DNA of 49,612 nt from NCBI GenBank assembly GCA_963588535.1, contig CAVAII010000035.1, positions 1 through 49,612 on the forward strand. Reading direction: 5' to 3'. Position numbers and translations under genes: made by a program. The DNA comes from Erysipelotrichaceae bacterium (GTDB lineage: Bacteria; Bacteroidota; Bacteroidia; Bacteroidales; P3). Shown here in pieces: positions 7,669 to 35,488 of the stretch (position 1 is the first letter of the stretch; each line of letters starts with the position of its first letter). Below the pieces are notes generated by a model that was not told the origin of the DNA, made no database searches, and was given only the letters and a program-made list of their open reading frames with translations.

Positions 7669-7819
7669 CTGATTTTTTGTGTTAGAACCTTAGGGATTTG
7701 ATAAATGTTAATAAAGATTAGTTAAACAACTGTTCGGTAAGCGAATAAACGGAATGATGATGGACTGACTGACTGACAAACACTAGGGTCAGTCAGTCAG
7801 TCAGTCCGTCATTAAGGCA
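7669..7819. repeat. Intergenic repeat element, copy A, with a tetranucleotide-repeat hairpin (7762-7807)
   Basis: Homologous to the reverse complement of 33825-33955. Shared blocks: CTGA(A)TTTTTTGTGTT, TGTTAATAA, TAAGCGAATAAACG (14/14), CTAGGGTCAGTC and CGTCATTA. Stem GGACTGACTGACTGAC / GTCAGTCAGTCAGTC(AGTC)C; loop AAACACTAGG. Confidence 0.8.
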
Positions 7820-9107: not shown

Positions 9108-11075
9108 ATGAAGACAATACAGAACGTAAATTTCAAAGGAAAAAGAGTTTTGGTTAGAGTCGATTTCAATGTTCCACAAGACGAAAAAGGCAACATAACA
9201 GACGATACCAGAATACGAGAAGCCTTACCTACAATAGAAAAATTAATGGGTGATGGTGCAAAAGTTATCCTTATGTCACATTTGGGTAGACCAAAGAAAG
9301 GCGGATTTGAGGAGAAATATTCCCTTAAACCAATTGCCGAATACCTATCCAAACTAATCAAAAAACCTGTTGTATTTACCCAAGAATTATTAGGCGATAC
9401 TGTCTATGATATGGCAGATAGTCTAAAAGATGGCGAGGTAATGCTACTGGAAAATGTTCGTTTCTATCAGGGCGAAACCAAGGGAGACGAGTATTTTGCA
9501 AAGCAATTAGCCAAATTAGGTGATGCTTACGTTAATGACGCCTTTGGAGCAGCACATAGAAATCATTCCTCAACGGCAGTTATTGCCAAATTCTTCCCTA
9601 ATGACAAGTATTTCGGCTTGTTGATGCAACAAGAAGTAGAGACGCTTAACAAACTATTAGGCGAGGTAGAACACCCATTTACGGCTATTATCGGCGGAAG
9701 CAAGATATCTACCAAGATGGATATCCTATTATCTCTTTGCGACAAAGTAGATTACCTACTAATCGGCGGTGGTATGCGTTATACTTTTGCCAAAGGTAAT
9801 GGACACAAGATAGGCGAGAGTATATGCGAAGATGACAAATTAGAGGCAGCATCAAGAGTTGTTTATACGGCTAAGAGTAAGGGCGTAAACATCGACTTAA
9901 CGCACGATAACGTAATAGCAGACGATTTCTCTAACGATGCTAACATTAGATATATTCCTGATATGGAGGTGCCAGATGGTTGGCAGGCTATGGATATAGG
10001 CGAGAAGACTATCGCTATGTATGAGGCTATTATCCGTAAGTCTAAGACCATACTTTGGAATGGACCTATGGGAGTGTTTGAGTTTCCTAATTTTGCAAAA
10101 GGTACTCAAGCCATTGCCAAAGCCGTAGCAGACGCAACCGAGAATAATGGTGCTTTCTCTGTAATAGGTGGAGGCGATAGTGTAGCGGCTATCAAACAAT
10201 CGGGTTATGCAGACAAAATCTCTTATATCTCTACAGGTGGCGGTGCTATGTTGGAGTATATCGAGGGTAAGACATTGCCAGGTATTGCTGCCATAGAAGA
10301 GACCGAGACGGCTCAACCTAAGAGAGTTTTGGTTACGGGTGCTACATCGGGTATTGGTAAGGCTTGTGCAGAGAAGTTTGCAGAGAAAGGTTGCGATATT
10401 ATCATTACAGGCAGAAGAAAAGAGAGATTAGAGGCATTGAAAAACGATTTGGAGAAGAAATATAACGTTAATGTCCTTGCTTTGAACTTCGATGTTAGAG
10501 ACAATAAACAAGTAGAGGAGAACCTTAATAGTTTGCCAGCCAAATGGAAGAAAATAGACGTATTGGTTAATAACGCAGGTTTGGCAGCAGGCAAAGACCC
10601 TATACAGTCTGCTTCTTTGGACGATTGGGAGCAAATGATAGATACGGACGTTAAGGGTCTATTGTATGTATCACGCATTGTTTTGCCATGGATGTGCGAG
10701 AGAAAACGTGGTCATGTAATCAATCTATGCTCTATTGCAGGCAAAGAAGTGTATGCAGGAGGTAGCGTATATTGTGCTGTTAAACACGCCGTTGATGCTA
10801 TATCTAAGGGTATGCGTATAGACTGTTTGAAATACAATGTAAAGGTTACTAATGTTTGTCCAGGAGCAGTCGAGACAGAGTTCTCTATGGTACGTTTCAA
10901 GGGTGATATGGCTAAGAATTACGCTACATACGAAGGCTTTACTCCACTAACAGGTGAGGATATTGCAGATACTATTGTATATTGTGCTTTCTTACCGCCT
11001 CATGTATGTATCAATGACTTGGTTATTATGCCAACGGCTCAGGCAAATAGTGGTTTATTCTATAGACAATCTTAA
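9108..11075 (+). CDS. pgk: Phosphoglycerate kinase fused in frame to a YdfG-like short-chain dehydrogenase/reductase
   Basis: Residues 1-~398 are PGK (RVDFNVP, MSHLGRPKKGG, STGGGAMLEYIEGKTLPG). Residues ~405-655 are a classical SDR (VLVTGATSGIGKA, NNAG, catalytic YCAVK). A single 655-aa frame with no stop across the junction at 10290-10325. Confidence 0.85.
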   Translation: MKTIQNVNFKGKRVLVRVDFNVPQDEKGNITDDTRIREALPTIEKLMGDGAKVILMSHLGRPKKGGFEEKYSLKPIAEYLSKLIKKPVVFTQELLGDTVYDMADSLKDGEVMLLENVRFYQGETKGDEYFAKQLAKLGDAYVNDAFGAAHRNHSSTAVIAKFFPNDKYFGLLMQQEVETLNKLLGEVEHPFTAIIGGSKISTKMDILLSLCDKVDYLLIGGGMRYTFAKGNGHKIGESICEDDKLEAASRVVYTAKSKGVNIDLTHDNVIADDFSNDANIRYIPDMEVPDGWQAMDIGEKTIAMYEAIIRKSKTILWNGPMGVFEFPNFAKGTQAIAKAVADATENNGAFSVIGGGDSVAAIKQSGYADKISYISTGGGAMLEYIEGKTLPGIAAIEETETAQPKRVLVTGATSGIGKACAEKFAEKGCDIIITGRRKERLEALKNDLEKKYNVNVLALNFDVRDNKQVEENLNSLPAKWKKIDVLVNNAGLAAGKDPIQSASLDDWEQMIDTDVKGLLYVSRIVLPWMCERKRGHVINLCSIAGKEVYAGGSVYCAVKHAVDAISKGMRIDCLKYNVKVTNVCPGAVETEFSMVRFKGDMAKNYATYEGFTPLTGEDIADTIVYCAFLPPHVCINDLVIMPTAQANSGLFYRQS

Positions 11076-19747: not shown

Positions 19748-21262
19748 ATGAGATCTAAGAATTTGATAATAACAACATTACTACTTAGTATAATAGTATT
19801 GTTTTCTTCCTCTGCAATGGCAGGACGTTATTCACGCTCCAAAGCACGCAACACCATAGAACAGACTTCGTATATCATCTCAGAAGCCTACGAGATAGCC
19901 TCCTATTATTCTTATTGGCAGTCCAGTAACCTTTCTCGTGCTATGTATTATAACGATTACGCACAGCATCTATATTATAGAAGGAATTATCGTTCGGCTA
20001 TCAACTATTCGTTGTTGGCTCGTGAGTACGCTTTGGATGTTATAGACGGCTGCGATGATTATTGGGAATACTTCTATTACACATTCTTCGGTTGGAGTTA
20101 TTCCTACGGCTATAACAATAATTTTGCTTATAGTTCTGGCTACAAAGACGGCTACTACGATGGTTATTACGCTGGCTATTGTGCTCGTCATTCACACGAC
20201 TATCGTAAAGACCCTCACCATAGTATGCACTCCTCTTGGTATGAGGACAATAAATATAGAGAAGTAGTTTCTTACGCAGATCAGAATCGTAATTCTTCCT
20301 CTGTTGCCTTAGGTCGTGGCGAGAGTTCTAAGTTAGGCAATACTTCTACAAACAACTCTAACACCTCGTTAAGCAGAAAGAACTACAAGAACCTTTCCAC
20401 CTCAAATTATTTCTCCGATGACGAAATAGACCTTTTGACTTCGTCTACAAGGACTACTTTGGAGAGAGAATACAAAGAGAATAACCCTTCGGTAACATTC
20501 TCTGATAACACATTATCTTCGAACACAGACTTATTGAAGAGAAACACCGAGAACACTACCAACTTCAAATCTCGTACTACTAATAAGGACAAAATAACCC
20601 GTACTACTACTGCCAAACCTTCTACTATCACTCGTTCAACTACTACCACAACTAACACCGCCACCACTACCGCCAACACCGCCACCACTACCGCCACTCC
20701 ATCTACTACCATTAGTAGAACCAACGCTACTACTCCTTCTACGACTACCAACACCTCTAACACAATAAACAGAAGCAGTACAACAACCTCTACGACTACC
20801 AATTCAACCTCTACGACTACCAACTCATCTAATACCCTTAATAGAGATAACAATACCATAAATAGAACCTCTACCACCACCAACACAACTAACTCATCTA
20901 ACACTCTTAACAGAGATAACAACACCATAAATAGAACCACTACTATTCCTCAAAAGACCGAGAACAAAACCTCTACCACTACTAACCGTAACACTACCAT
21001 TAACCGCAGCAATAGAACCACTACTACCACCCCTACAAGAACCTCTAACACTACTACCAGAACCAACTCCAATACCTCTCGTAGTACTAATTCTAACACC
21101 AGAACCAACTCCAATACCTCTCGTAGTACTAATTCTAACTCTTCTTCTCGTAGTAATTCTAATGTTTCTCGTTCTTCCTCTTCTTCCTCTCGTTCCTCAC
21201 AGAGTAGTACTTCTCGTTCGGCAAGTGAGAGACAATCTTCCAATCGTTCTATTTCGAGATAA
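19748..21262 (+). CDS. Secreted or membrane-anchored low-complexity protein (Tyr-rich domain plus a long S/T/N/R-rich repeat region)
   Basis: N-terminal hydrophobic segment LIITTLLLSIIVLFSSSAMA. Y-rich block GYKDGYYDGYYAGY. The C-terminal ~270 aa are almost entirely S/T/N/R with internal repeats. Coding status rests on ORF length and the upstream AT-rich region only. Confidence 0.5.
   Translation: MRSKNLIITTLLLSIIVLFSSSAMAGRYSRSKARNTIEQTSYIISEAYEIASYYSYWQSSNLSRAMYYNDYAQHLYYRRNYRSAINYSLLAREYALDVIDGCDDYWEYFYYTFFGWSYSYGYNNNFAYSSGYKDGYYDGYYAGYCARHSHDYRKDPHHSMHSSWYEDNKYREVVSYADQNRNSSSVALGRGESSKLGNTSTNNSNTSLSRKNYKNLSTSNYFSDDEIDLLTSSTRTTLEREYKENNPSVTFSDNTLSSNTDLLKRNTENTTNFKSRTTNKDKITRTTTAKPSTITRSTTTTTNTATTTANTATTTATPSTTISRTNATTPSTTTNTSNTINRSSTTTSTTTNSTSTTTNSSNTLNRDNNTINRTSTTTNTTNSSNTLNRDNNTINRTTTIPQKTENKTSTTTNRNTTINRSNRTTTTTPTRTSNTTTRTNSNTSRSTNSNTRTNSNTSRSTNSNSSSRSNSNVSRSSSSSSRSSQSSTSRSASERQSSNRSISR
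21056..21139 (+). repeat. Perfect 42-bp tandem duplication inside the S/T/N-rich gene
   Basis: ACCAGAACCAACTCCAATACCTCTCGTAGTACTAATTCTAAC occurs at 21056-21097 and again at 21098-21139 (encodes TRTNSNTSRSTNSN twice). Confidence 0.9.
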
Positions 21263-21465: not shown

Positions 21466-21861
21466 TTACTGGTAATTAGACAAGTCTTTTAGTTCCAGAG
21501 TAACCCCTTTTAGGGTGTTCTTAAACGCTACAGACGGATAGAATCTACAAGTTACTCGCTTAATACTCTCAGCATTGACAGCATCGGCAGACAAACAAGC
21601 CTGAGCCTTTATCTTTGGTATGAACGCACCCAAAGTGCCGAACATAACCGCATTGCCGTTCATTACATGCTTTGATACATGCATCTCGAAGGCTTTCAAC
21701 GCTGCCAAAGTGTCTGGATATGATACCGAGGTTGCGTGCGAGATTTCTTGTGCTATCTCATCTAATGAGACGTTTGCACCACGAAAGATCTTAGCGTAAT
21801 ATCTGTCTTCTTGTACGCCTTTGATCCACATTTTTTTTGCTTTACTTTTTACGTAATACAT
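21466..21861 (-). CDS. HU-family (Bacteroidota histone-like) DNA-binding protein
   Basis: 131 aa. ..RYYAKIFRGANVSLDEIAQEISHATSVSYPDTLAALKAFEMHVSKHVMNGNAVMFGTLGAF.. fits the Bacteroidales HU-domain family. Confidence 0.7.
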   Translation of the reverse strand: MYYVKSKAKKMWIKGVQEDRYYAKIFRGANVSLDEIAQEISHATSVSYPDTLAALKAFEMHVSKHVMNGNAVMFGTLGAFIPKIKAQACLSADAVNAESIKRVTCRFYPSVAFKNTLKGVTLELKDLSNYQ

Positions 21862-28157: not shown

Positions 28158-29921
28158 TTAGTTTTCTTTCTTCTCCATCTCTTCTTTCAAAGAAGCCAAA
28201 ACGTCCAAATCACCAAGAGTAGTCTTCTCTAAGTTTTGGTTGATTTGTCTCATAACATTACCCTCTTTTCTAGGTTTGTTATCGTCTTCTTGTCTCCACA
28301 TCTTAGTGTGTGAAAGTACAATTCTTTTTGCTTCTTTTTGGAACTCGATAACTTTGAACTGAAGTTTCTCGTCTACCTTTGGATTAGTCTTGTCCTCTTT
28401 CATCATCTGACCCTTAGGACAGAAACCTTCTATTCCGTAAGGTAAGTTAACTACAGCACCGCTCTTCTCATTAACGCTTGTTACAGTACCCTCTTGAACA
28501 GAACCTACTGTAAAGATAGTCTCGAATACATCCCAAGGATTCTCCTCTAATTGTTTGTGTCCCAAAGACAATCTTCTGTTCTCAGGATCTATGCTAAGTA
28601 CTACAACGTCTAACTTCTCACCAATCTTAGTGAACTCAGCAGGGTGTTTGATCTTCTTGCTCCAAGACAAGTCAGAGATATGTATCAAACCATCTACACC
28701 TTCCTCTAATTCTACAAAGATACCAAAGTTAGTAAAGTTACGAACAGTAGCAGTATGTTTGCTTCCTACTGGATATTTCTTGTCGATATCAATCCATGGG
28801 TCTGGCATTAATTGTTTCATACCCAAAGACATCTTTCTCTCTTCTCTATCCAAAGTCAAGATCTCTGCCTCTACCTCATCACCTACTTTCAAGAAGTCAT
28901 GTGCTGTACGTAAGTGTTGGCTCCAACTCATCTCCGTAACGTGTATCAAACCCTCTACACCAGGTATGATCTCTACAAATGCACCATAGTCTGCTATAAC
29001 TACTACTTTGCCTTTTACCTTATCACCAACCTTTAGGTTAGGATCTAATTGATCCCATGGGTGAGGAGTAAGTTGTTTCAAACCAAGAGCAATTCTCTTC
29101 TTTGTCTCGTCGAAGTCCAAAATAACTACTTTTAGTTTGTCGTCTAAGTGTACAATCTCCTCTGGTGAGTTGATTCTACCCCAAGACAAATCTGTGATAT
29201 GTATCAAACCATCTACACCACCTAAGTCAATGAATACTCCGTAAGAAGTAATGTTCTTAACAGTACCCTCTAATACTTGACCCTTCTCTAAGTGAGACAT
29301 AATCTCAGCCTTTTGTGCCTCTATCTCATCTTCTATCAAAGCCTTGTGCGATACTACTATGTTCTTGTACTCATTGTTGATCTTGATGATCTTGAACTCC
29401 ATAGTCTTGTCTACAAATACATCGTAATCCCTTATAGGCTTAACGTCTATTTGTGATCCTGGCAAAAAGGCCTCTATACCGAATACATCTACGATTAGAC
29501 CGCCCTTTGTTCTGGACTTAACGTAACCTTTAATAATCTCTCCACTCTCGAATGCTTCGTTAACTCTGCCCCAAGATTTAAGGATTCTTGCTTTCTTATG
29601 GCTAAGAACCAATTGACCATTAGAATCTTCCTCATTCTCAATGAATACCTCTACTTTGTCTCCTACCTTTAGGTCTGGATTATAACGGAACTCTGAAGCA
29701 GGTATTACACCGTCTGACTTGAAGTCGATATTAACTACAACTTCTCTGTCATTAAAGGCTACAACAGTACCTTCTGCTAATTGATCATCACCAATTTTGC
29801 CGAATGTTTGGTCGTAAGCGGCTTGAAGTTTCTCTCTGTCTTCTGGGGTGTAAGTTTGTTTGTCATCAACCGAAGCCCAATCAAAATCTTGTAAAGGTTG
29901 AACGTTTTTTAAATCTCTCAT
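28158..29921 (-). CDS. rpsA: 30S ribosomal protein S1
   Basis: 587 aa with six S1 repeats (for example GTVVAFNDREVVVNI, GYVKSRTKGGLIVDV, GTVKNITSYGVFIDLGGVDGLIHITDLSW). Confidence 0.95.
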   Translation of the reverse strand: MRDLKNVQPLQDFDWASVDDKQTYTPEDREKLQAAYDQTFGKIGDDQLAEGTVVAFNDREVVVNIDFKSDGVIPASEFRYNPDLKVGDKVEVFIENEEDSNGQLVLSHKKARILKSWGRVNEAFESGEIIKGYVKSRTKGGLIVDVFGIEAFLPGSQIDVKPIRDYDVFVDKTMEFKIIKINNEYKNIVVSHKALIEDEIEAQKAEIMSHLEKGQVLEGTVKNITSYGVFIDLGGVDGLIHITDLSWGRINSPEEIVHLDDKLKVVILDFDETKKRIALGLKQLTPHPWDQLDPNLKVGDKVKGKVVVIADYGAFVEIIPGVEGLIHVTEMSWSQHLRTAHDFLKVGDEVEAEILTLDREERKMSLGMKQLMPDPWIDIDKKYPVGSKHTATVRNFTNFGIFVELEEGVDGLIHISDLSWSKKIKHPAEFTKIGEKLDVVVLSIDPENRRLSLGHKQLEENPWDVFETIFTVGSVQEGTVTSVNEKSGAVVNLPYGIEGFCPKGQMMKEDKTNPKVDEKLQFKVIEFQKEAKRIVLSHTKMWRQEDDNKPRKEGNVMRQINQNLEKTTLGDLDVLASLKEEMEKKEN

Positions 29922-30041: not shown

Positions 30042-30125
30042 CAAATATTCTGTAACATAGAGACTTTTTTTATAAGAAAAATTAATTTTTTTTCTCCTCA
30101 CCCCTCAAAAATCTATAAAAAGTAT

Positions 30126-30133
30126 TAATTTTG
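30126..30133 (+). promoter_or_regulatory. -7 box TAATTTTG for the type II R-M unit
   Basis: Exact TAnnTTTG, 21 nt upstream of ATG 30154. Confidence 0.5.
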
Positions 30134-30153
30134 CCTTCTCAAAACACATAACT

Positions 30154-30897
30154 ATGGCTACAAGTAAATATAACTTAGGGTTTATATCCGACGAGAATAT
30201 CTATAAGCACGTCAAAGATACTGTCCTACACTACAAATCTATGATTGATTTGGAAGAGTTTAACAGCAATATAATAGATCCTGTCAAACTTACTTTCGAT
30301 GCCAAAGTCTATGGCAAGACTTTCGAAGAGTTGATAGAATCCGAGTGTATCAGACAAGCAGACAAAGCCAACAATAACCAAATAGGATATTTTCACCAAA
30401 ACCTTTTCCTCTACGCAGGCAACGGTTGGTACGTTCCTAAGGAAGTATTCGACGTTGCTAACGACAACCTAAGAATATATGTAGAGATAAAAAACAAACA
30501 TAATACTATGAACTCCTCTTCCTCTAAATCAACCTACATAAAGATGCAAAACCAACTACTCAAAGACCCTCAATCTACTTGTATGTTAGTGGAGGTCATA
30601 GCCAAAACCTCTCAAAACATAGTTTGGAAAACTTCTATCGACAAAACCAAAGTCGAACACCCCAAAATACGCCGTGTATCGATAGACAAGTTCTACGAAA
30701 TAGTTTTCTCGGACAATAACGCCTTTGCCAAACTCTGCAACGCCCTTCCCCTAATCCTCGACGATGTAATCAAACAAGTACACACCAAAGCCATTAGTAG
30801 CAATGTTAGTCAAGAGTTAAAGAAACTTTCTACCAATACCTTCAAAAGTCTTTATCTACTGGCATTTGATAAATACGAGGGATTTAATAATTTCTAA
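30154..30897 (+). CDS. Type II restriction endonuclease, Eco47II/Sau96I-like family
   Basis: LGFISDENIYKHVKDTV.., IDPVKLTFD, IGYFHQNLF and FDVANDNLRIYVEIKNKHNTMNSSSSKSTYIKMQ match my recollection of the RE_Eco47II family, including the PD-(D/E)xK-like D...E-I-K. Lies directly upstream of a C5 methyltransferase. Confidence 0.6.
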   Translation: MATSKYNLGFISDENIYKHVKDTVLHYKSMIDLEEFNSNIIDPVKLTFDAKVYGKTFEELIESECIRQADKANNNQIGYFHQNLFLYAGNGWYVPKEVFDVANDNLRIYVEIKNKHNTMNSSSSKSTYIKMQNQLLKDPQSTCMLVEVIAKTSQNIVWKTSIDKTKVEHPKIRRVSIDKFYEIVFSDNNAFAKLCNALPLILDDVIKQVHTKAISSNVSQELKKLSTNTFKSLYLLAFDKYEGFNNF

Positions 30898-30901
30898 CCC
30901 T

Positions 30902-32134
30902 ATGGAACAGTTCTTTACCAAAACGAATCTGGCAGATATCCTAAGCGTATCTTTGCGTACTATCGAGACGTGGGTCACCAAAGGCACTCTATCCTTAGAC
31001 ACGGACGAAAGCGGTAGAGAAGGTTTCTATGCCCATAACATAGCCCAGATACCTTCGGTAGAATCTATGCTATATAGCAAATGGAATGAAGAATATAGCG
31101 TAACATCAAAGCGAGATTATACCTCCATAGAGTTGTTCGCAGGTGGTGGTGGTCTGGCATTAGGAATGGAAATGGCAGGCTTCAAACACGTCCTATTGAA
31201 CGAAATAGACTCGTCTGCTTGCGATACCCTACGAATGAATCGCCCCTCTTGGAACATCGTAGAAGGAGACATACACAAGATATCTTTCAAAGAATACAGG
31301 GACAAAGTAGATTTCCTATCGGGTGGTTTTCCTTGTCAAGCATTTAGTTATGCAGGCAACAAAGGCGGTTTCGAGGACGCCAGAGGTACTCTATTCTTCG
31401 AATTGGCAAGAGCCGTGAAAGAAGTAAAGCCCAAAGTCTTTATGTGCGAGAATGTCAAAGGTCTCTACACTCATGACAATGGCCGAACGTTCGAGGTAAT
31501 CAAAAACGTTATCTCTGAGCTCGGCTATACCTTGGTAGATCCACAAGTCCTAAAAGCCGTTCAGTACAAAGTACCTCAAAAAAGAGAACGTCTAATCCTT
31601 GTTGCCATTAGAAATGATTTAGCCCCAAAGGTTACCTTCCATTACCCTTCTCCTTTTTATAGAGTGGTTACCCTTAGAGACGCTTTCTACAAAGGTATCC
31701 TCTACGACACCGACGTACCTCCCTCAATAGGTCAGAAGTACCCTCAACGCAAAAAAGAAATAATGGACAAAGTGCCTATGGGTGGATATTGGAAAGACCT
31801 CCCAGACGACCTACAAAGAGAGTATATGAAAGGTAGTTATTATATGAGTGGCGGAAGAACAGGTATCGCCCGAAGACTCTCACTTAACGAGCCTTCACTT
31901 ACCTTGACTTGTGCCCCTGCTATGAAACAGACCGAACGTTGTCACCCTATCGAGACTCGCCCTCTAACCGTTAGAGAATACGCCCGCATACAGACCTTCC
32001 CTGATTCTTGGCAGTTCTGTGGCAATATGACAACGCAATACAAACAAATCGGAAACGCTGTGCCTGTTAATCTTGCCGCAGCCGTTGGTCGTTCGCTTAT
32101 CCGTCTGTTTAACGATATAGAAGACCTAAAATAA
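30902..32134 (+). CDS. dcm: DNA (cytosine-5)-methyltransferase with an N-terminal HTH domain
   Basis: C5-MTase motifs I (ELFAGGGGL), IV (GGFPCQAFS), VI (ENVKGL), VIII (PQKRERL) and X (GNAVPV). The N-terminal TNLADILSVSLRTIETWVTKGTL is a MerR/excisionase-type HTH. Start at ATG 30902. Confidence 0.9.
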   Translation: MEQFFTKTNLADILSVSLRTIETWVTKGTLSLDTDESGREGFYAHNIAQIPSVESMLYSKWNEEYSVTSKRDYTSIELFAGGGGLALGMEMAGFKHVLLNEIDSSACDTLRMNRPSWNIVEGDIHKISFKEYRDKVDFLSGGFPCQAFSYAGNKGGFEDARGTLFFELARAVKEVKPKVFMCENVKGLYTHDNGRTFEVIKNVISELGYTLVDPQVLKAVQYKVPQKRERLILVAIRNDLAPKVTFHYPSPFYRVVTLRDAFYKGILYDTDVPPSIGQKYPQRKKEIMDKVPMGGYWKDLPDDLQREYMKGSYYMSGGRTGIARRLSLNEPSLTLTCAPAMKQTERCHPIETRPLTVREYARIQTFPDSWQFCGNMTTQYKQIGNAVPVNLAAAVGRSLIRLFNDIEDLK

Positions 32135-32248
32135 GCCTTTTTTTACTCCCTTTTTTTCAACTCTCTGCCACTTCGTAGATTAGAAAAAAACCACAAATTT
32201 TTTCCAAAAAAAGAGAAAAAAAATTGTCTCCATCTGAAAGATTTTATC

Positions 32249-32256
32249 TACTTTTG
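32249..32256 (+). promoter_or_regulatory. -7 box TACTTTTG for the ATPase/Toprim unit
   Basis: Exact TAnnTTTG, about 245 nt upstream of ATG 32502. Confidence 0.4.
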
Positions 32257-32501
32257 CAATCGGAAAGGTTACCAAAAATAAACCCATCCACGAAAATTTA
32301 ATTTATTAACTAATAAACATTTACGCTTATGACAAAAGAGCAACGTACAGCAACGTTGTGTAGAGATAGCCTTCGCTTCTCTATTCGCAACACAGAGACA
32401 AAACAAACTTTCTTCTTCGCCGTTGGCGACTACACTATCTATGCACAAAAAAAACAAGAAAGAAACTTATTTATCAACACTAAAAAAAGATTTAGTAAAC
32501 A

Positions 32502-33824
32502 ATGGAAACACAAAACAAAAACACAAATGGGGGATTAGAAACCCAACAAAAGATGACAAACAGGGGATCAGAAACTCAACCAAATGAAACTATTAACGTC
32601 TCTTTCCCAACAACTATCACAGACGATTGGCAAAAGGCAGTCGAAGGCTATCACACAGCCACAAAAGAGAAAACCGAGAAGGAAAAAGTAGAAGACGTAC
32701 TTCAACAGATCCTTCAAGATGATTACACTGAGAACGTTGTCGACTACTCCAAAGATTTCTACGATAAGGAGATAGAACCGATAGCGTGGCTGACTGATAA
32801 CTGGTGGCCAGCAGGCGATCAGACGGACAACAAGACCCTAAACCTACTGGGTGCGAGTGGAGTAGGTAAGACAACGCTTTATAGTTATCTTATGCTATGC
32901 CTTTCGTGCAATGTCCCGATGTTCGGCAATAAGGACTTCTCGAACCATAACCCTGACAAGAGACCCATCGTTATGATCTGTCTTGAAGACGGTGCTAAAC
33001 GTATGCGAACACTCCTTAAAAGTCAATGGCAGAGTATGGTCAAAAGCGGTCTTATCGCCCCTGACAACGTCCCTGATATACGTTATATATATGAGGAACG
33101 TCTGTTGCAGAGGACTAAGGATGGGCTGTATTTCGAGTTCCTGCCGATGATCTTTCGTCTCTATGACAAACCTCCTGTAATGGTTGTCTGCGACTCGCTT
33201 TTGGAGTTGAACGCTATCTTTGGTACTGCCGGCAATGACAGTACCAGCGTCTCGCAGGCTCTACACCCTTTCCGTGCCTTGAACAAAGAATTCGGCTGTA
33301 ACACCCTTATGATCAATCACCCTCAGAAAAACTCCTCTATCTACCAAGACGAACAACAGCAGATCATAGGTGCTGCCGCCGGTATCACTAGTTCTAAGGC
33401 GATAATGAAACTACAAAAAGGTAAGACAGAAGGCCTTTTGGAGTTCTCATTCGTTAAGTCGACTTATATGCCCGAGAAGTTCCGTACAAAGAAATTCGTT
33501 ATCCGTCGTAACGATGACTCTACGTTTACTTTTATGGAAATGAGGGAGAAGAACTCCTCCGACCAAGACGAAGAGACCCAAATCAACTACCTCCAAACCC
33601 TTACCTACGCCAAAGACCTATACGATAATCAGAAAATAGGTACTTGGAAAGTAGTTGCAGAAAAACTCAATAGCGAGGGTAAAAAGAATCCGAGTGGAGA
33701 CAACTGGACGGGTAATTATCTTTGTAGAGAGGTAAGGAGAGTATCAGGAAATTCTACTCAATCTGACAAAAAATCTACTCATTCAAACTCAAAATCTAAC
33801 TCTCACTCGAAAACTAAGAAATGA
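32502..33824 (+). CDS. RecA-fold ATPase of the RepA/DnaB-like (AAA_25-type) helicase family
   Basis: Walker A LLGASGVGKTTL, VMICLEDG, Walker B PVMVVCDSLLEL and LMINHPQK (H..K motif), as in plasmid or phage RepA-type hexameric helicases. S/K-rich C-terminal tail. Confidence 0.65.
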   Translation: METQNKNTNGGLETQQKMTNRGSETQPNETINVSFPTTITDDWQKAVEGYHTATKEKTEKEKVEDVLQQILQDDYTENVVDYSKDFYDKEIEPIAWLTDNWWPAGDQTDNKTLNLLGASGVGKTTLYSYLMLCLSCNVPMFGNKDFSNHNPDKRPIVMICLEDGAKRMRTLLKSQWQSMVKSGLIAPDNVPDIRYIYEERLLQRTKDGLYFEFLPMIFRLYDKPPVMVVCDSLLELNAIFGTAGNDSTSVSQALHPFRALNKEFGCNTLMINHPQKNSSIYQDEQQQIIGAAAGITSSKAIMKLQKGKTEGLLEFSFVKSTYMPEKFRTKKFVIRRNDDSTFTFMEMREKNSSDQDEETQINYLQTLTYAKDLYDNQKIGTWKVVAEKLNSEGKKNPSGDNWTGNYLCREVRRVSGNSTQSDKKSTHSNSKSNSHSKTKK

Positions 33825-33955
33825 CCCTAATGACGTAGTGAGTGAGTGACTGACCCTAGGGTTTCTCAGTCACTCACTAACTAGTCTTTTCGTTTATTCG
33901 CTTATTGCTCAGTTATTTAATCAGTATTATTAACAAACACAAAAAATTCAGTATT
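33825..33955. repeat. Intergenic repeat element, copy B (inverted relative to copy A), with a hairpin at 33841-33878
   Basis: Fills the whole spacer between the ATPase stop and the next ATG. 13-bp perfect stem AGTGAGTGACTGA/TCAGTCACTCACT; loop CCCTAGGGTTTC. The flanks match copy A (see 7669-7819). Confidence 0.8.
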
Positions 33956-35413
33956 ATGACTCAAAAAAGTACATTCATAGACCCTGATATCTTACAAAAA
34001 GGAGAACAAAGACCGCACTTCCGTAAGATGATCGGCACAAAAGAAATCAAACACAACAGCCTCGGCAAAGGATTCACTTGCCCTTATTGCGGTGCTAAAA
34101 ACCATTTCAACCCATACGTCTATATGACCGACTTCCGTCAGAAACGAGAAGGAGAGGTTGTCGACGCTCAACTGTTCGGCCACTGCTTCAACGCCTCTTG
34201 CCCGGCAGGTCAATCCTCCAAAGGTATCTACCCCTCTTTCGAGAACGGCTACCGATACTCTATGGCAGGTTATCCTGACGCTAATAAACTTAACACTCAG
34301 CACACTAATCTTAATGCTTATCCCACTAATCTTAACAATTATTCCCCCTCCCAAAATTCTCATCCCTCTAATTCTCACTCATTTACCTCTAAGCCAAACT
34401 CCTTTGCCTCTAAGTCAAACTCCTTTATCTCTAAGCCAAATACTCACTTCGCTACTCAAAACTCCTTTTCCTCTACTCAAAACTCTCCCTTACCGTTACT
34501 GCCACAGCATTATGACCTTATAGATAGAGGGTGGATAGCCGCTCATAACTTTTTCTCTAACTTCCTCTATGGGTCGTTCTGCGGTTATGACTGCGAGATG
34601 ATGGACTACCTGCTCTCGCTCGGCTACTCTCGCCAAGAGATACTGCAAGCCTTCTGCGAGATGAAGGTCTCAGGCTCGTTCTACAAACAACTAACAATCG
34701 AGCCTCTGCCCTCGAACGATGATGACTCCTTCCCGCCGCCTAACCCCAACAACGCCCGTATCCTCCGTATCAAAGGCACCGTCTATTGGTACCTCGACGA
34801 GTGGGGTGGCATACGCACAGGCAAGATAATCTACTCGCTCCACGGCCATCGTATCAGCAAGAAAAACACCCCCGAGGTGCCTTCCGCCTTGCATTCCCTA
34901 TTCTCGCCCTCTTGGGTACACTACTATTATAAACAACTGCCCGATAACACCGAAAAAGACTTCCGTGCAGGTGTCTTTGGCCTGCCACGCCTTTGTAAGA
35001 TGATGCAAAAAGGGACTCTCTCCTCGCTTCCTATCTGCCTTTATGAGAGTGAGAAAACGGCTCTGATGATGACTCTCGAATGTCCTTCGGCTGTTCATCT
35101 TGCTGTGGGTGGCGAGCAGAACTTCAAGTACGATATCCTTATGGACCTATTCTCGCTCGGCGTCCGTTGTCTTGTCGCCTACCCGGACAAAGGCTACTAT
35201 GACTCATGGCAACGCAAAGCCCATGATATCACTTCTCAATTCTCTCATCTTTTCCCTCTTGCTTCCTCGACTGACCGCCTTTATATCCACGTCTCTGATA
35301 TACTCGAACAGCCTTCGTTTTCCTTCCTCCCCGACAACTCTGACCTCGGCGACCTAATCGACCACATCCGCCACTGTACATCCTCCACACCCGAAGTCTC
35401 GGCAGTAGGTTAA
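33956..35413 (+). CDS. Zinc-finger plus Toprim-like domain protein (primase-like)
   Basis: Start at ATG 33956 (MTQKSTFIDP). Cys/His cluster FTCPYCGAKNHF...GHCFNASCPAG, then a low-complexity S/N/P linker. The C-terminal ICLYESEKTALMM..HLAVGGEQNF..LVAYPDKGYYDSW..SDLGDLI resembles a Toprim fold (conserved Glu plus an acidic cluster). Confidence 0.55.
   Translation: MTQKSTFIDPDILQKGEQRPHFRKMIGTKEIKHNSLGKGFTCPYCGAKNHFNPYVYMTDFRQKREGEVVDAQLFGHCFNASCPAGQSSKGIYPSFENGYRYSMAGYPDANKLNTQHTNLNAYPTNLNNYSPSQNSHPSNSHSFTSKPNSFASKSNSFISKPNTHFATQNSFSSTQNSPLPLLPQHYDLIDRGWIAAHNFFSNFLYGSFCGYDCEMMDYLLSLGYSRQEILQAFCEMKVSGSFYKQLTIEPLPSNDDDSFPPPNPNNARILRIKGTVYWYLDEWGGIRTGKIIYSLHGHRISKKNTPEVPSALHSLFSPSWVHYYYKQLPDNTEKDFRAGVFGLPRLCKMMQKGTLSSLPICLYESEKTALMMTLECPSAVHLAVGGEQNFKYDILMDLFSLGVRCLVAYPDKGYYDSWQRKAHDITSQFSHLFPLASSTDRLYIHVSDILEQPSFSFLPDNSDLGDLIDHIRHCTSSTPEVSAVG
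34388..34450 (+). repeat. Imperfect 21-bp x3 tandem repeat (SKPNSFA-type) in the linker of the Toprim protein
   Basis: TCTAAGCCAAACTCCTTTGCC / TCTAAGTCAAACTCCTTTATC / TCTAAGCCAAATACTCACTTC. Confidence 0.8.
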
Positions 35414-35449
35414 TCGCCTAATCTAAGCAGACAAGAGGAGAAAAGAAAA

Positions 35450-35488
35450 AGCGGTCAGCCTTTAAATGGTACTGACCGCTTTTGTTTT
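35450..35488 (+). terminator. Rho-independent terminator after the ATPase/Toprim unit
   Basis: AGCGGTCAG-(13 nt)-CTGACCGCT followed by TTTGTTTT. Confidence 0.75.

Follow-up and report, generated by a model that had tools for sequence, protein, structure and literature searches.

The DNA analyzed here, referred to throughout as the window, is a stretch of 49,612 nucleotides (nt) covering positions 1 to 49,612 of metagenome contig CAVAII010000035.1 (assembly GCA_963588535.1) from a bacterium of the Bacteroidales, and our subject is a two-gene unit at 32132-35486 that encodes a predicted helicase-type ATPase followed by a predicted primase. The pair lies in an island bracketed by rpsA (28158-29921, minus strand) and gldD (39686-40282, minus strand), in which the order from left to right is an Eco47II endonuclease, a C5 methylase, the pair, a type IIG enzyme with a specificity subunit, and a small membrane open reading frame (ORF). 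Outside the island, the scanned remainder of the window consists of housekeeping genes, and the window shows traits of Bacteroidota, namely GldD, a CHU_C domain of the type IX secretion system, and TAnnTTTG promoters. The features of the unit are listed below, where L numbers designate related loci on other contigs and lengths of proteins are in amino acids (aa).

32222-32256, plus strand: promoter-like region with a -7 box, a predicted function based on a pattern match
32329-32538, plus strand: small upstream ORF of 69 aa overlapping the start of gene 1, putatively coding, also called in L001, L002, L092, and L094
32502-33824, plus strand: gene 1, RepA/SF4-like RecA-fold ATPase (Pfam AAA_25), 440 aa, assigned from Pfam and motifs
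33825-33905, plus strand: intergenic hairpin between genes 1 and 2, assigned from inverted repeats I5/I7 and folding
33956-35413, plus strand: gene 2, DnaG/T7-gp4-type primase (Pfam DUF6371), 485 aa, assigned from Pfam, alignment, and AlphaFold2 (AF2)/Foldseek
34285-34500, plus strand: in-frame 21-nt (7-codon) tandem repeats encoding the primase linker, found by Tandem Repeats Finder, copy number strain-dependent
35450-35488, plus strand: intrinsic terminator closing the unit, assigned from its fold, the window/L001 alignment, and a blastn boundary at 35486

An earlier, sequence-only reading of this DNA had described a self-contained unit made up of a -7 box, two genes, and a terminator; all of these elements were found, every motif it had quoted is present in the two ORFs, and the comparison of strains gives matching limits. 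The -7 box TACTTTTG at 32249-32256 fits the Bacteroidetes consensus TAnnTTTG and is kept between strains, and the promoter block TCTCCATCT..AGATTTTATCTACTTTTGCAATCGGAA around it is conserved in L001 and L002. At the other end, a GC-rich hairpin, GCGGTCAG...CTGACCGC, is followed by the T-run TTTTGTTTT and folds at -20.7 kcal/mol (z = -3.5), and homology between strains stops immediately past this terminator. The conserved block at 32132-35486, obtained by blastn between strains, independently delimits the two-gene unit. The G+C content of the pair (0.41-0.50) exceeds that of the downstream restriction-modification (R-M) genes (0.29-0.34), as had been noticed by eye; however, the same claim does not extend to the upstream flank, as the C5 methylase gene has a G+C content of 0.42-0.45.

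The product of gene 1 carries the motifs GASGVGKTT, ICLEDG, VMVVCDS, and INHPQK and matches Pfam AAA_25 over aa 82-278 (E = 1.1e-17; 64.7 bits against a cut-off of 27). The Walker A lysine K123, the Walker B aspartate D231, and the H273/K276 sensor are invariant in an alignment that includes homologues borne on mobile elements, and a profile built from gene 1 retrieves the Twinkle helicase as its best match among PDB sequences (8e-4), together with RadA (5e-3). The ATPase core is preceded by an N-terminal tail that contains repeats, and is followed by a C-terminal helical domain resembling a winged helix-turn-helix and by a basic, low-complexity tail. On these grounds, gene 1 is predicted to encode a RecA-fold, superfamily 4 (SF4)-like ATPase, for which assembly into a ring and unwinding of DNA are putative. 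In-frame tandem repeats of 33 nt and 21 nt, the length of which varies between strains, encode these tails (32505-32579 and 33749-33798) and the linker of the primase (34285-34500).

The start of gene 2 is taken to be the ATG at 33956 rather than the TTG at 33905 because the homologues P0001-P0003 begin with MTQKST. Its product contains the motifs CPYC...HCFNASC, YESEKTAL, AYPDKG, and DLGDLI, and can be divided into a four-cysteine zinc ribbon (aa 42-82), a disordered linker rich in S, N, and P (aa 100-183), the length of which differs among P0001-P0003, and an RNA-polymerase/Toprim domain (aa 186-470). Pfam DUF6371 is matched with E = 6e-14 and 52.5 bits (cut-off 27.7) over aa 290-429 of the TTG-start ORF. 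Across 41 sequences of the DUF6371 family, the zinc cysteines C42, C45, C77, and C82 are invariant, and so are G289, K290, E364, E366, K367, T368, A369, D411, D463, and D466. The Pfam model Zn_ribbon_16 was not matched, the only zinc-finger hit being a weak one to Herpes_UL52. In the AF2 model, the mean predicted local distance difference test score (pLDDT) is 73, residues 21-94 and 210-477 are modeled well, and the linker at 100-183 is disordered. When this model was compared with the PDB by Foldseek, the best matches were 1nui, the primase fragment of T7 gp4, and the DnaG RNA-polymerase domains of five bacteria, and the top 14 matches were all primases or primase-helicases (including 1nui, 5vaz, 4e2k, 4edg, 1eqn, 2au3, and 5w34); against viral models, a DUF6371 protein and TOPRIM primases were retrieved with E-values down to 9e-7. 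Gene 2 thus encodes, as judged from its residues and its modeled fold, a DnaG/T7-gp4-type primase, with primer synthesis as its putative activity.

The combination of AAA_25/SF4 features in one protein with primase features in the other therefore points to a split T7-gp4/Twinkle-like helicase-primase. This agrees with the sequence-only reading, which had proposed a helicase-type ATPase with a zinc-finger Toprim primase and had suggested profile and structure searches: both Pfam families score above their cut-offs, the modeled fold of gene 2 is that of a primase, and the alignment and the Twinkle profile match concur, although the model of gene 1 is poor. Searches of PDB sequences with either single protein, or with the DUF6371 profile, gave nothing useful, and NCBIfam, PADLOC, and PHROGs supplied no functional name for either protein. 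The logic of a zinc-ribbon, DnaG-type primase joined to an SF4 RecA-fold helicase is shared with T7 gp4 and Twinkle; unlike those proteins, the pair in the window consists of separate polypeptides with helicase preceding primase, has only about 12% identity to them, and has no DNA polymerase or replisome gene nearby.

At least six metagenome samples of this species yielded contigs with the pair at the identical locus adjoining rpsA. All contigs that extend past rpsA carry it, none of them showing an empty site. On either side of the pair, by comparison, the content varies, as set out in the following lines.

30077-32131, plus strand: left variable slot with the Eco47II endonuclease and C5 methylase (Pfam; blastn indel), absent in L002, L094, and L098
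35487-39485, plus strand: right variable slot (blastn, alignments), R-M content strain-dependent
35586-37631, plus strand: type IIG enzyme in the right slot (PADLOC REase_MTase_IIG, 7e-230)
37691-38821, plus strand: specificity subunit in the right slot (PADLOC Specificity_II)
38998-39381, minus strand: small membrane ORF in the right slot

Window: left slot, Eco47II R-M; right slot, type IIG enzyme and specificity subunit
L001: left slot, Eco47II R-M; right slot, MmeI-like enzyme and SNF2/PLD protein
L092 and L093: left slot, Eco47II R-M; right slot, type I system
L094-L096: left slot empty; right slot, type I system
L002 and L098: left slot empty; contig ends before the right slot

The type I alternative includes, besides a DUF1016 gene, two hsdS genes or fragments of such genes in opposite orientations. 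Only the microhomology CTTTTTTT is seen at the slot junctions. The pair did not deliver the R-M systems, since cassettes are gained and lost around it independently. The earlier suggestion that it belonged to an element that had delivered them is not supported: the pair occurs with and without Eco47II and with three different downstream systems. The R-M cassettes are separate passengers exchanged between strains, an exchange in which the pair, rpsA, and gldD probably act as arms of homology.

Neither gene is interrupted in any strain, and no internal stops occur. Between strains, the ratio of nonsynonymous to synonymous substitution rates (dN/dS) is 0.057 for the ATPase core, 0.096 for the primase zinc ribbon, and 0.12 for the primase catalytic core, compared with 0.02-0.10 for the flanking housekeeping genes and with 0.2-0.5 for the tails, the linker, and the ATPase C-terminal domain (0.43 for the primase linker). 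As the genes are intact and the constraint on their cores (0.06-0.12) is like that on housekeeping genes, the module is not decaying, contrary to the first of the two alternatives offered earlier, a stranded replication module of a decayed element. The dS of the cores (0.09-0.10) is close to that of the flanking genes and is therefore as expected for vertical descent. The very high dS of the ATPase C-terminal domain (0.43 over aa 351-415) suggests that alleles of this domain have been exchanged by recombination.

The DUF6371 family is common in Bacteroidota, with at least 519 relatives in GTDB species genomes. A tyrosine integrase lies 2-5 kb upstream in 35 of the 53 DUF6371 loci with sufficient upstream flank, a figure that is a lower bound because the ad hoc integrase hidden Markov model (HMM) at first missed the integrase family of L033. 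The usual order is integrase, HTH_17, a gene for AAA_25, DUF3987, or another protein, and DUF6371, often followed by MobC or a relaxase. CP103138, a 10-kb Tn4555-like circle of Bacteroides fragilis, carries an AAA ATPase, DUF6371, Mob, cfxA, and an integrase in this order, a gene content that agrees with the Tn4555 gene block listed previously (PMC13183296), and plasmid pFunn3_1 carries integrase, HTH, DUF3987, DUF6371, and MobV. The NBU-like element MTnBf8 has the order DUF3853, P-loop NTPase, Toprim primase, and mobN1 (PMC13597742), and in Prevotella a primase-family protein has been counted in the backbone of mobilizable transposons (PMC4755523). An origin of the pair's module in mobilizable elements, as had been anticipated from the motifs, is thus well supported by these comparisons.

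The pair in the window is nonetheless set apart from its element-borne relatives. Relative to Tn4555 and to orf7/orf8 of the NBU-type MTnBf8, the two Pfam families, their order and strand, and the Walker, zinc-ribbon, and Toprim residues all match, whereas the identity is only 21-24% for the ATPase and 25-35% for the primase (Toprim part only), and the window proteins are 110-150 aa longer owing to N- and C-terminal tails and the long repeat linker. They also have neither a Pfam Zn_ribbon_16 match nor the C-terminal extension of typical family members. More generally, no other AAA_25 partner exceeds 24% identity to the ATPase, and for the primase identity reaches at most 35%, again in the Toprim part only. 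In an exhaustive HMMER search of 1.84 billion representative proteins, the ATPase retrieved only 2 clusters at E <= 1e-30, no members of the window's own primase clade were found in JGI metagenome contigs or IMG/VR, and a scan of GTDB species representatives returned distant relatives (identity at most 35%) and no clade member. These searches place the window pair in a deep and rare clade. In L003, from a different lineage, the pair is 47-48% identical and is followed by glycosyltransferase, Mur-ligase, and AnmK genes, the upstream side being missing from the contig.

Unlike Tn4555 and NBU-type elements, the window has no integrase, excisionase, Mob gene, or resistance cargo beside the pair, the chromosomal position of which is fixed. 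A Pfam scan of the window ORFs (except those at about 15.7-18.8 kb) gave no Phage_integrase and no relaxase, and an ad hoc HMM built from 50 element integrases found no match in the window, the ORFs at about 15.7-18.8 kb being included in, and covered only by, this second search. MobC and relaxase seeds likewise had no match in the window. The primase gene is followed directly by the terminator and then by the R-M cassette, with no adjacent Mob gene, and a repeat search of the island edges revealed no attachment (att)-like flanking repeats and no convincing iterons. No tRNA gene adjoins the island, the nearest being 22 kb away. The sequence-only reading had seen no integrase, relaxase, or att repeats, and this is borne out within the ORFs and edges scanned.

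The window is not alone in this respect, as 13 other AAA_25-DUF6371 loci without an integrase were found among housekeeping genes in Bacteroidota, and some of them are syntenic across species (L049/L066 and L034/L061). In a Pfam census of 118 genes neighboring the integrase-less loci, HU-HIG occurred 5 times, AAA_14 3 times, SocA/Panacea 3 times, and type I R-M in 2 loci, and no integrase or relaxase family was present among the 25 most frequent families. HU-HIG directly follows the primase gene in four loci (L057, 10996-11409; L069, 8953-9432; L074, 11007-11552; L078, 10913-11335) and is confined to integrase-less loci, with none in those bearing an integrase. HU-HIG genes have been described as being almost wholly without conserved gene linkage, and a role in conflicts with invasive DNA has been proposed for them (Burroughs et al., PMC5499826). 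The association with AAA_25-DUF6371 may therefore be new; in the literature searched, no description of an integrase-less AAA_25-DUF6371(-HU-HIG) class was found. The window resembles L057, L069, L074, L078, and the others in that the pair is surrounded by housekeeping, R-M, and toxin-antitoxin genes and lacks an accompanying integrase or relaxase, and differs in that its ATPase is only 22-24% identical to theirs and in that HU-HIG is not adjacent, its own HU-HIG gene (21466-21861, minus strand) being located 10.6 kb upstream beside a glucosaminidase gene. In rough neighbor-joining trees, the HU-associated pairs cluster for both proteins, and the window clade joins nearby on a long branch, a placement that is only suggestive.

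Taking these observations together, we favor, with a probability of about 60%, the interpretation that the unit at 32132-35486 represents a helicase-primase, now orphaned and domesticated, that derives from a mobile element and has been kept for the benefit of the host. The unit would descend from a replication/mobilization module of the Tn4555/NBU type (integrase, HTH_17, AAA_25, DUF6371, Mob), of which the integrase, Mob, and att sites would have been lost or never present in this Bacteroidales species, and it would have been inherited chromosomally between rpsA and gldD, with selection keeping both enzymes active. The protein families, the fold, the conserved catalytic residues, the synteny, the turnover of the cassettes, and the selection are observed, whereas the enzymatic activity, substrate, and biological role envisaged for the pair are putative. 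The ATPase would use its C-terminal helical domain and its basic tail to bind DNA, form a ring, and unwind DNA using ATP, while the zinc ribbon of the primase would read a template site and short RNA primers would be made at the Toprim/RNA-polymerase center (E364, E366, D411, D463, D466, and K290). The most likely substrate would be DNA from mobile elements that reside in the cell or enter it, in single-stranded form or as excised circles, on which the pair would act in trans.

Several points weigh against this interpretation. The Foldseek E-values of the gene 2 model against the PDB are marginal, at about 1e-2 to 1e-3 (best 3.5e-3), although the top 14 matches are all primases or primase-helicases, with probabilities of up to 1.0 and template modeling scores (normalized to the target) of up to 0.49. 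The AF2 model of gene 1, built from a 6-sequence alignment, has a pLDDT of 49, which is too poor for a fold search or for support of a ring helicase. The G+C content and GC skew of the unit are atypical for the host, and a recent acquisition would fit them as well. All examples come from metagenome contigs, so that an integrase or an origin of transfer (oriT) farther off in the genome is possible. Finally, some unspecified benefit to the host is implied, as housekeeping-level constraint would not readily be expected of a purely "selfish but harmless" module.

An alternative that we consider unlikely is that the two genes form a new anti-phage or anti-mobile-element system, which would detect invading DNA or act upon it, for example by priming or unwinding foreign replication intermediates in an aberrant manner, or by abortive infection; this had been raised earlier on the basis of the resemblance to OLD-family nucleases, Gabija GajA, and PARIS AriA/AriB, which share an ATPase with a Toprim partner and a location in defense islands. 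Such a role accords with the central position that the pair has within an R-M island in all strains, with other integrase-less pairs near type I R-M (L011 and L078), a type II methylase (L057), or SocA/Panacea and AAA_14 (L069), with the frequent presence of HU-HIG, for which a conflict role has been proposed (PMC5499826), after integrase-less pairs, and with the fast evolution of the ATPase C-terminal domain, tails, and linkers and their variable number of repeats. The location is, however, weak evidence because defense islands also gather remnants of elements, and neither protein matches PADLOC-DB 2.0 (zero families at E <= 0.01, with OLD, Gabija, and PARIS included) or the NCBIfam defense models. 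The Toprim domains of OLD, Gabija, and PARIS are those of bare nucleases without a full primase build, whereas that of the window is embedded in a complete primase with zinc ribbon, RNA-polymerase subdomain, and Toprim, and the ATPase is RecA/SF4-like rather than of the ABC/OLD type. Moreover, relatives occupy the replication-module position of mobile elements, and the 47% identical relative in L003 has housekeeping neighbors downstream. What stands of the earlier proposal is thus circumstantial, namely the location and the fast-evolving tails, and the absence of a PADLOC match and the full primase architecture count against it.

Equally improbable in our estimation is a further possibility, in which a module captured from mobilizable transposons has been domesticated as a new conflict system, either as a primase-based defense against phages or incoming elements or as an organizer that keeps the slot open for R-M exchange, and belongs to a wider, undescribed class of integrase-less AAA_25-DUF6371(-HU-HIG) pairs in Bacteroidota.

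We regard as doubtful, to a marginally greater extent, the idea that the pair is the replication core of an island that is still mobile. Either the entire rpsA-gldD insert or just the pair would then be moved, through host recombination or a recombinase whose gene lies elsewhere, with the R-M genes as exchangeable cargo and the intergenic hairpin as a possible single-strand initiation (ssi) site or origin. This hairpin comprises the flank CCCTAATGACG, an 18-bp stem, the loop CCCTAGGGT, and then CGTTTATTCGC, and folds at -31 kcal/mol (z = -4.5). In its counterparts (L001, 11335-11420; L002, 11322-11400), the stem sequence has changed while pairing is preserved, and the flanks and loop are conserved; the stems are 18-23 bp long across copies and are made of tetranucleotides of the GACT/GACA/GAGT type. 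The IncQ plasmid system of RepA helicase and RepB' primase uses such hairpins as ssi sites, and RSF1010 shares with the window an AAA_25-like ATPase, a dedicated primase, and a stable hairpin. The window differs from RSF1010 in that it has no RepC-like initiator, that no iterons were found, and that its primase is of the Toprim/DnaG type, to which RepB' does not belong. A second copy of the hairpin is located at 7741-7816 (minus strand), in an unrelated intergenic region near tRNA-Arg; this copy fits a repetitive extragenic palindromic (REP)-like or terminator element better, and on that account the hairpin was rejected as an origin. Mobility is further favored by the different chromosomal context of the pair in L003 and by the 440-bp insert with 45-nt inverted repeats at the intergenic position there, but the identical site is occupied in all strains with no empty site seen, no flanking direct repeats are present, and the core dS of 0.09-0.10 resembles that of the flanks, as under vertical descent.

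Under the least probable of the alternatives, the pair is what a decayed mobilizable transposon has left behind, neutral and awaiting deletion. This alternative is consistent with the abundance in Bacteroidales of degraded copies lacking integrase or att sites (PMC4755523), with the foreign-looking G+C and skew, and with the failure of the scans to find an integrase or Mob, but is already largely refuted by the selection data (ORFs intact in all strains, core dN/dS of 0.06-0.12), by the orthologous pair at 47-48% identity in a second lineage, and by the conserved promoter and terminator.

The significance of the locus for the domestication hypothesis is as follows. Replication modules of mobile elements are normally lost after the element dies, whereas here the catalytic cores of a module without genes for integration or transfer are under housekeeping-like selection, exactly between two slots for R-M exchange. 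Should the pair have a host function, it would clearly exemplify the exaptation of a primase-helicase (for defense, for helping or blocking co-resident elements, or for repair priming) and would assign a role to DUF6371, which so far has apparently received attention only as an unnamed gene of Tn4555/NBU-type transposons. Without such a function, the locus would still be a tidy natural R-M hotspot with defined boundaries.

Within the unit, the first 47 codons of the small upstream ORF are conserved (the first 141 nt being 86-98% identical between strains), and the 60 nt on its 5' side exist in two allelic forms with a mutual identity of only 58%. An A8/A7 length polymorphism at 32447-32454 toggles its C-terminus between a 69-aa and an 85-aa form, and fusion of this ORF to the ATPase through the A7/A8 tract was rejected, as neither allele enters the ATPase frame. 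Profile searches gave no family match for it, and no Rfam RNA family was found within the island. In L003, the gap between the ATPase and primase genes (1505-1960) holds the insert of about 440 bp mentioned above, which is bounded by the 45-nt inverted repeats GCGGAGCGGAGAGGACTGTCTTAGTATAATCCGATACGCTCCG and its complement, carries small ORFs, and has the look of a miniature inverted-repeat transposable element.

Two further observations concern the right slot. The gene for the specificity subunit contains a perfect 24-nt tandem duplication at 38120-38167, so that ISELEQER occurs twice in the central spacer; repeats in the central spacer of specificity subunits can alter the spacing between recognition half-sites. 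At the right edge of the slot, a 141-bp block (39486-39626) is 97% identical between strains and consists of a -7 box TAATTTTG at 39514, about 50 nt, and a strong terminator hairpin at 39572-39616; it has no Rfam match and may represent either the gene of a small RNA or a bidirectional terminator of gldD.

Finally, two ORFs elsewhere in the window should be noted. At 19748-21262 (plus strand), a 504-aa ORF without a Pfam match lies within a region of extreme negative GC skew (-0.35 to -0.48) and is overlapped by opposite-strand ORFs of 164-177 aa; it is called as a gene in related contigs, and its coding strand is uncertain. At 9108-11075 (plus strand), a single 655-aa ORF encodes a full phosphoglycerate kinase (aa 4-388) fused to a short-chain dehydrogenase/reductase domain (aa 405-625), and 14 cluster members conserve it at 90% or more.

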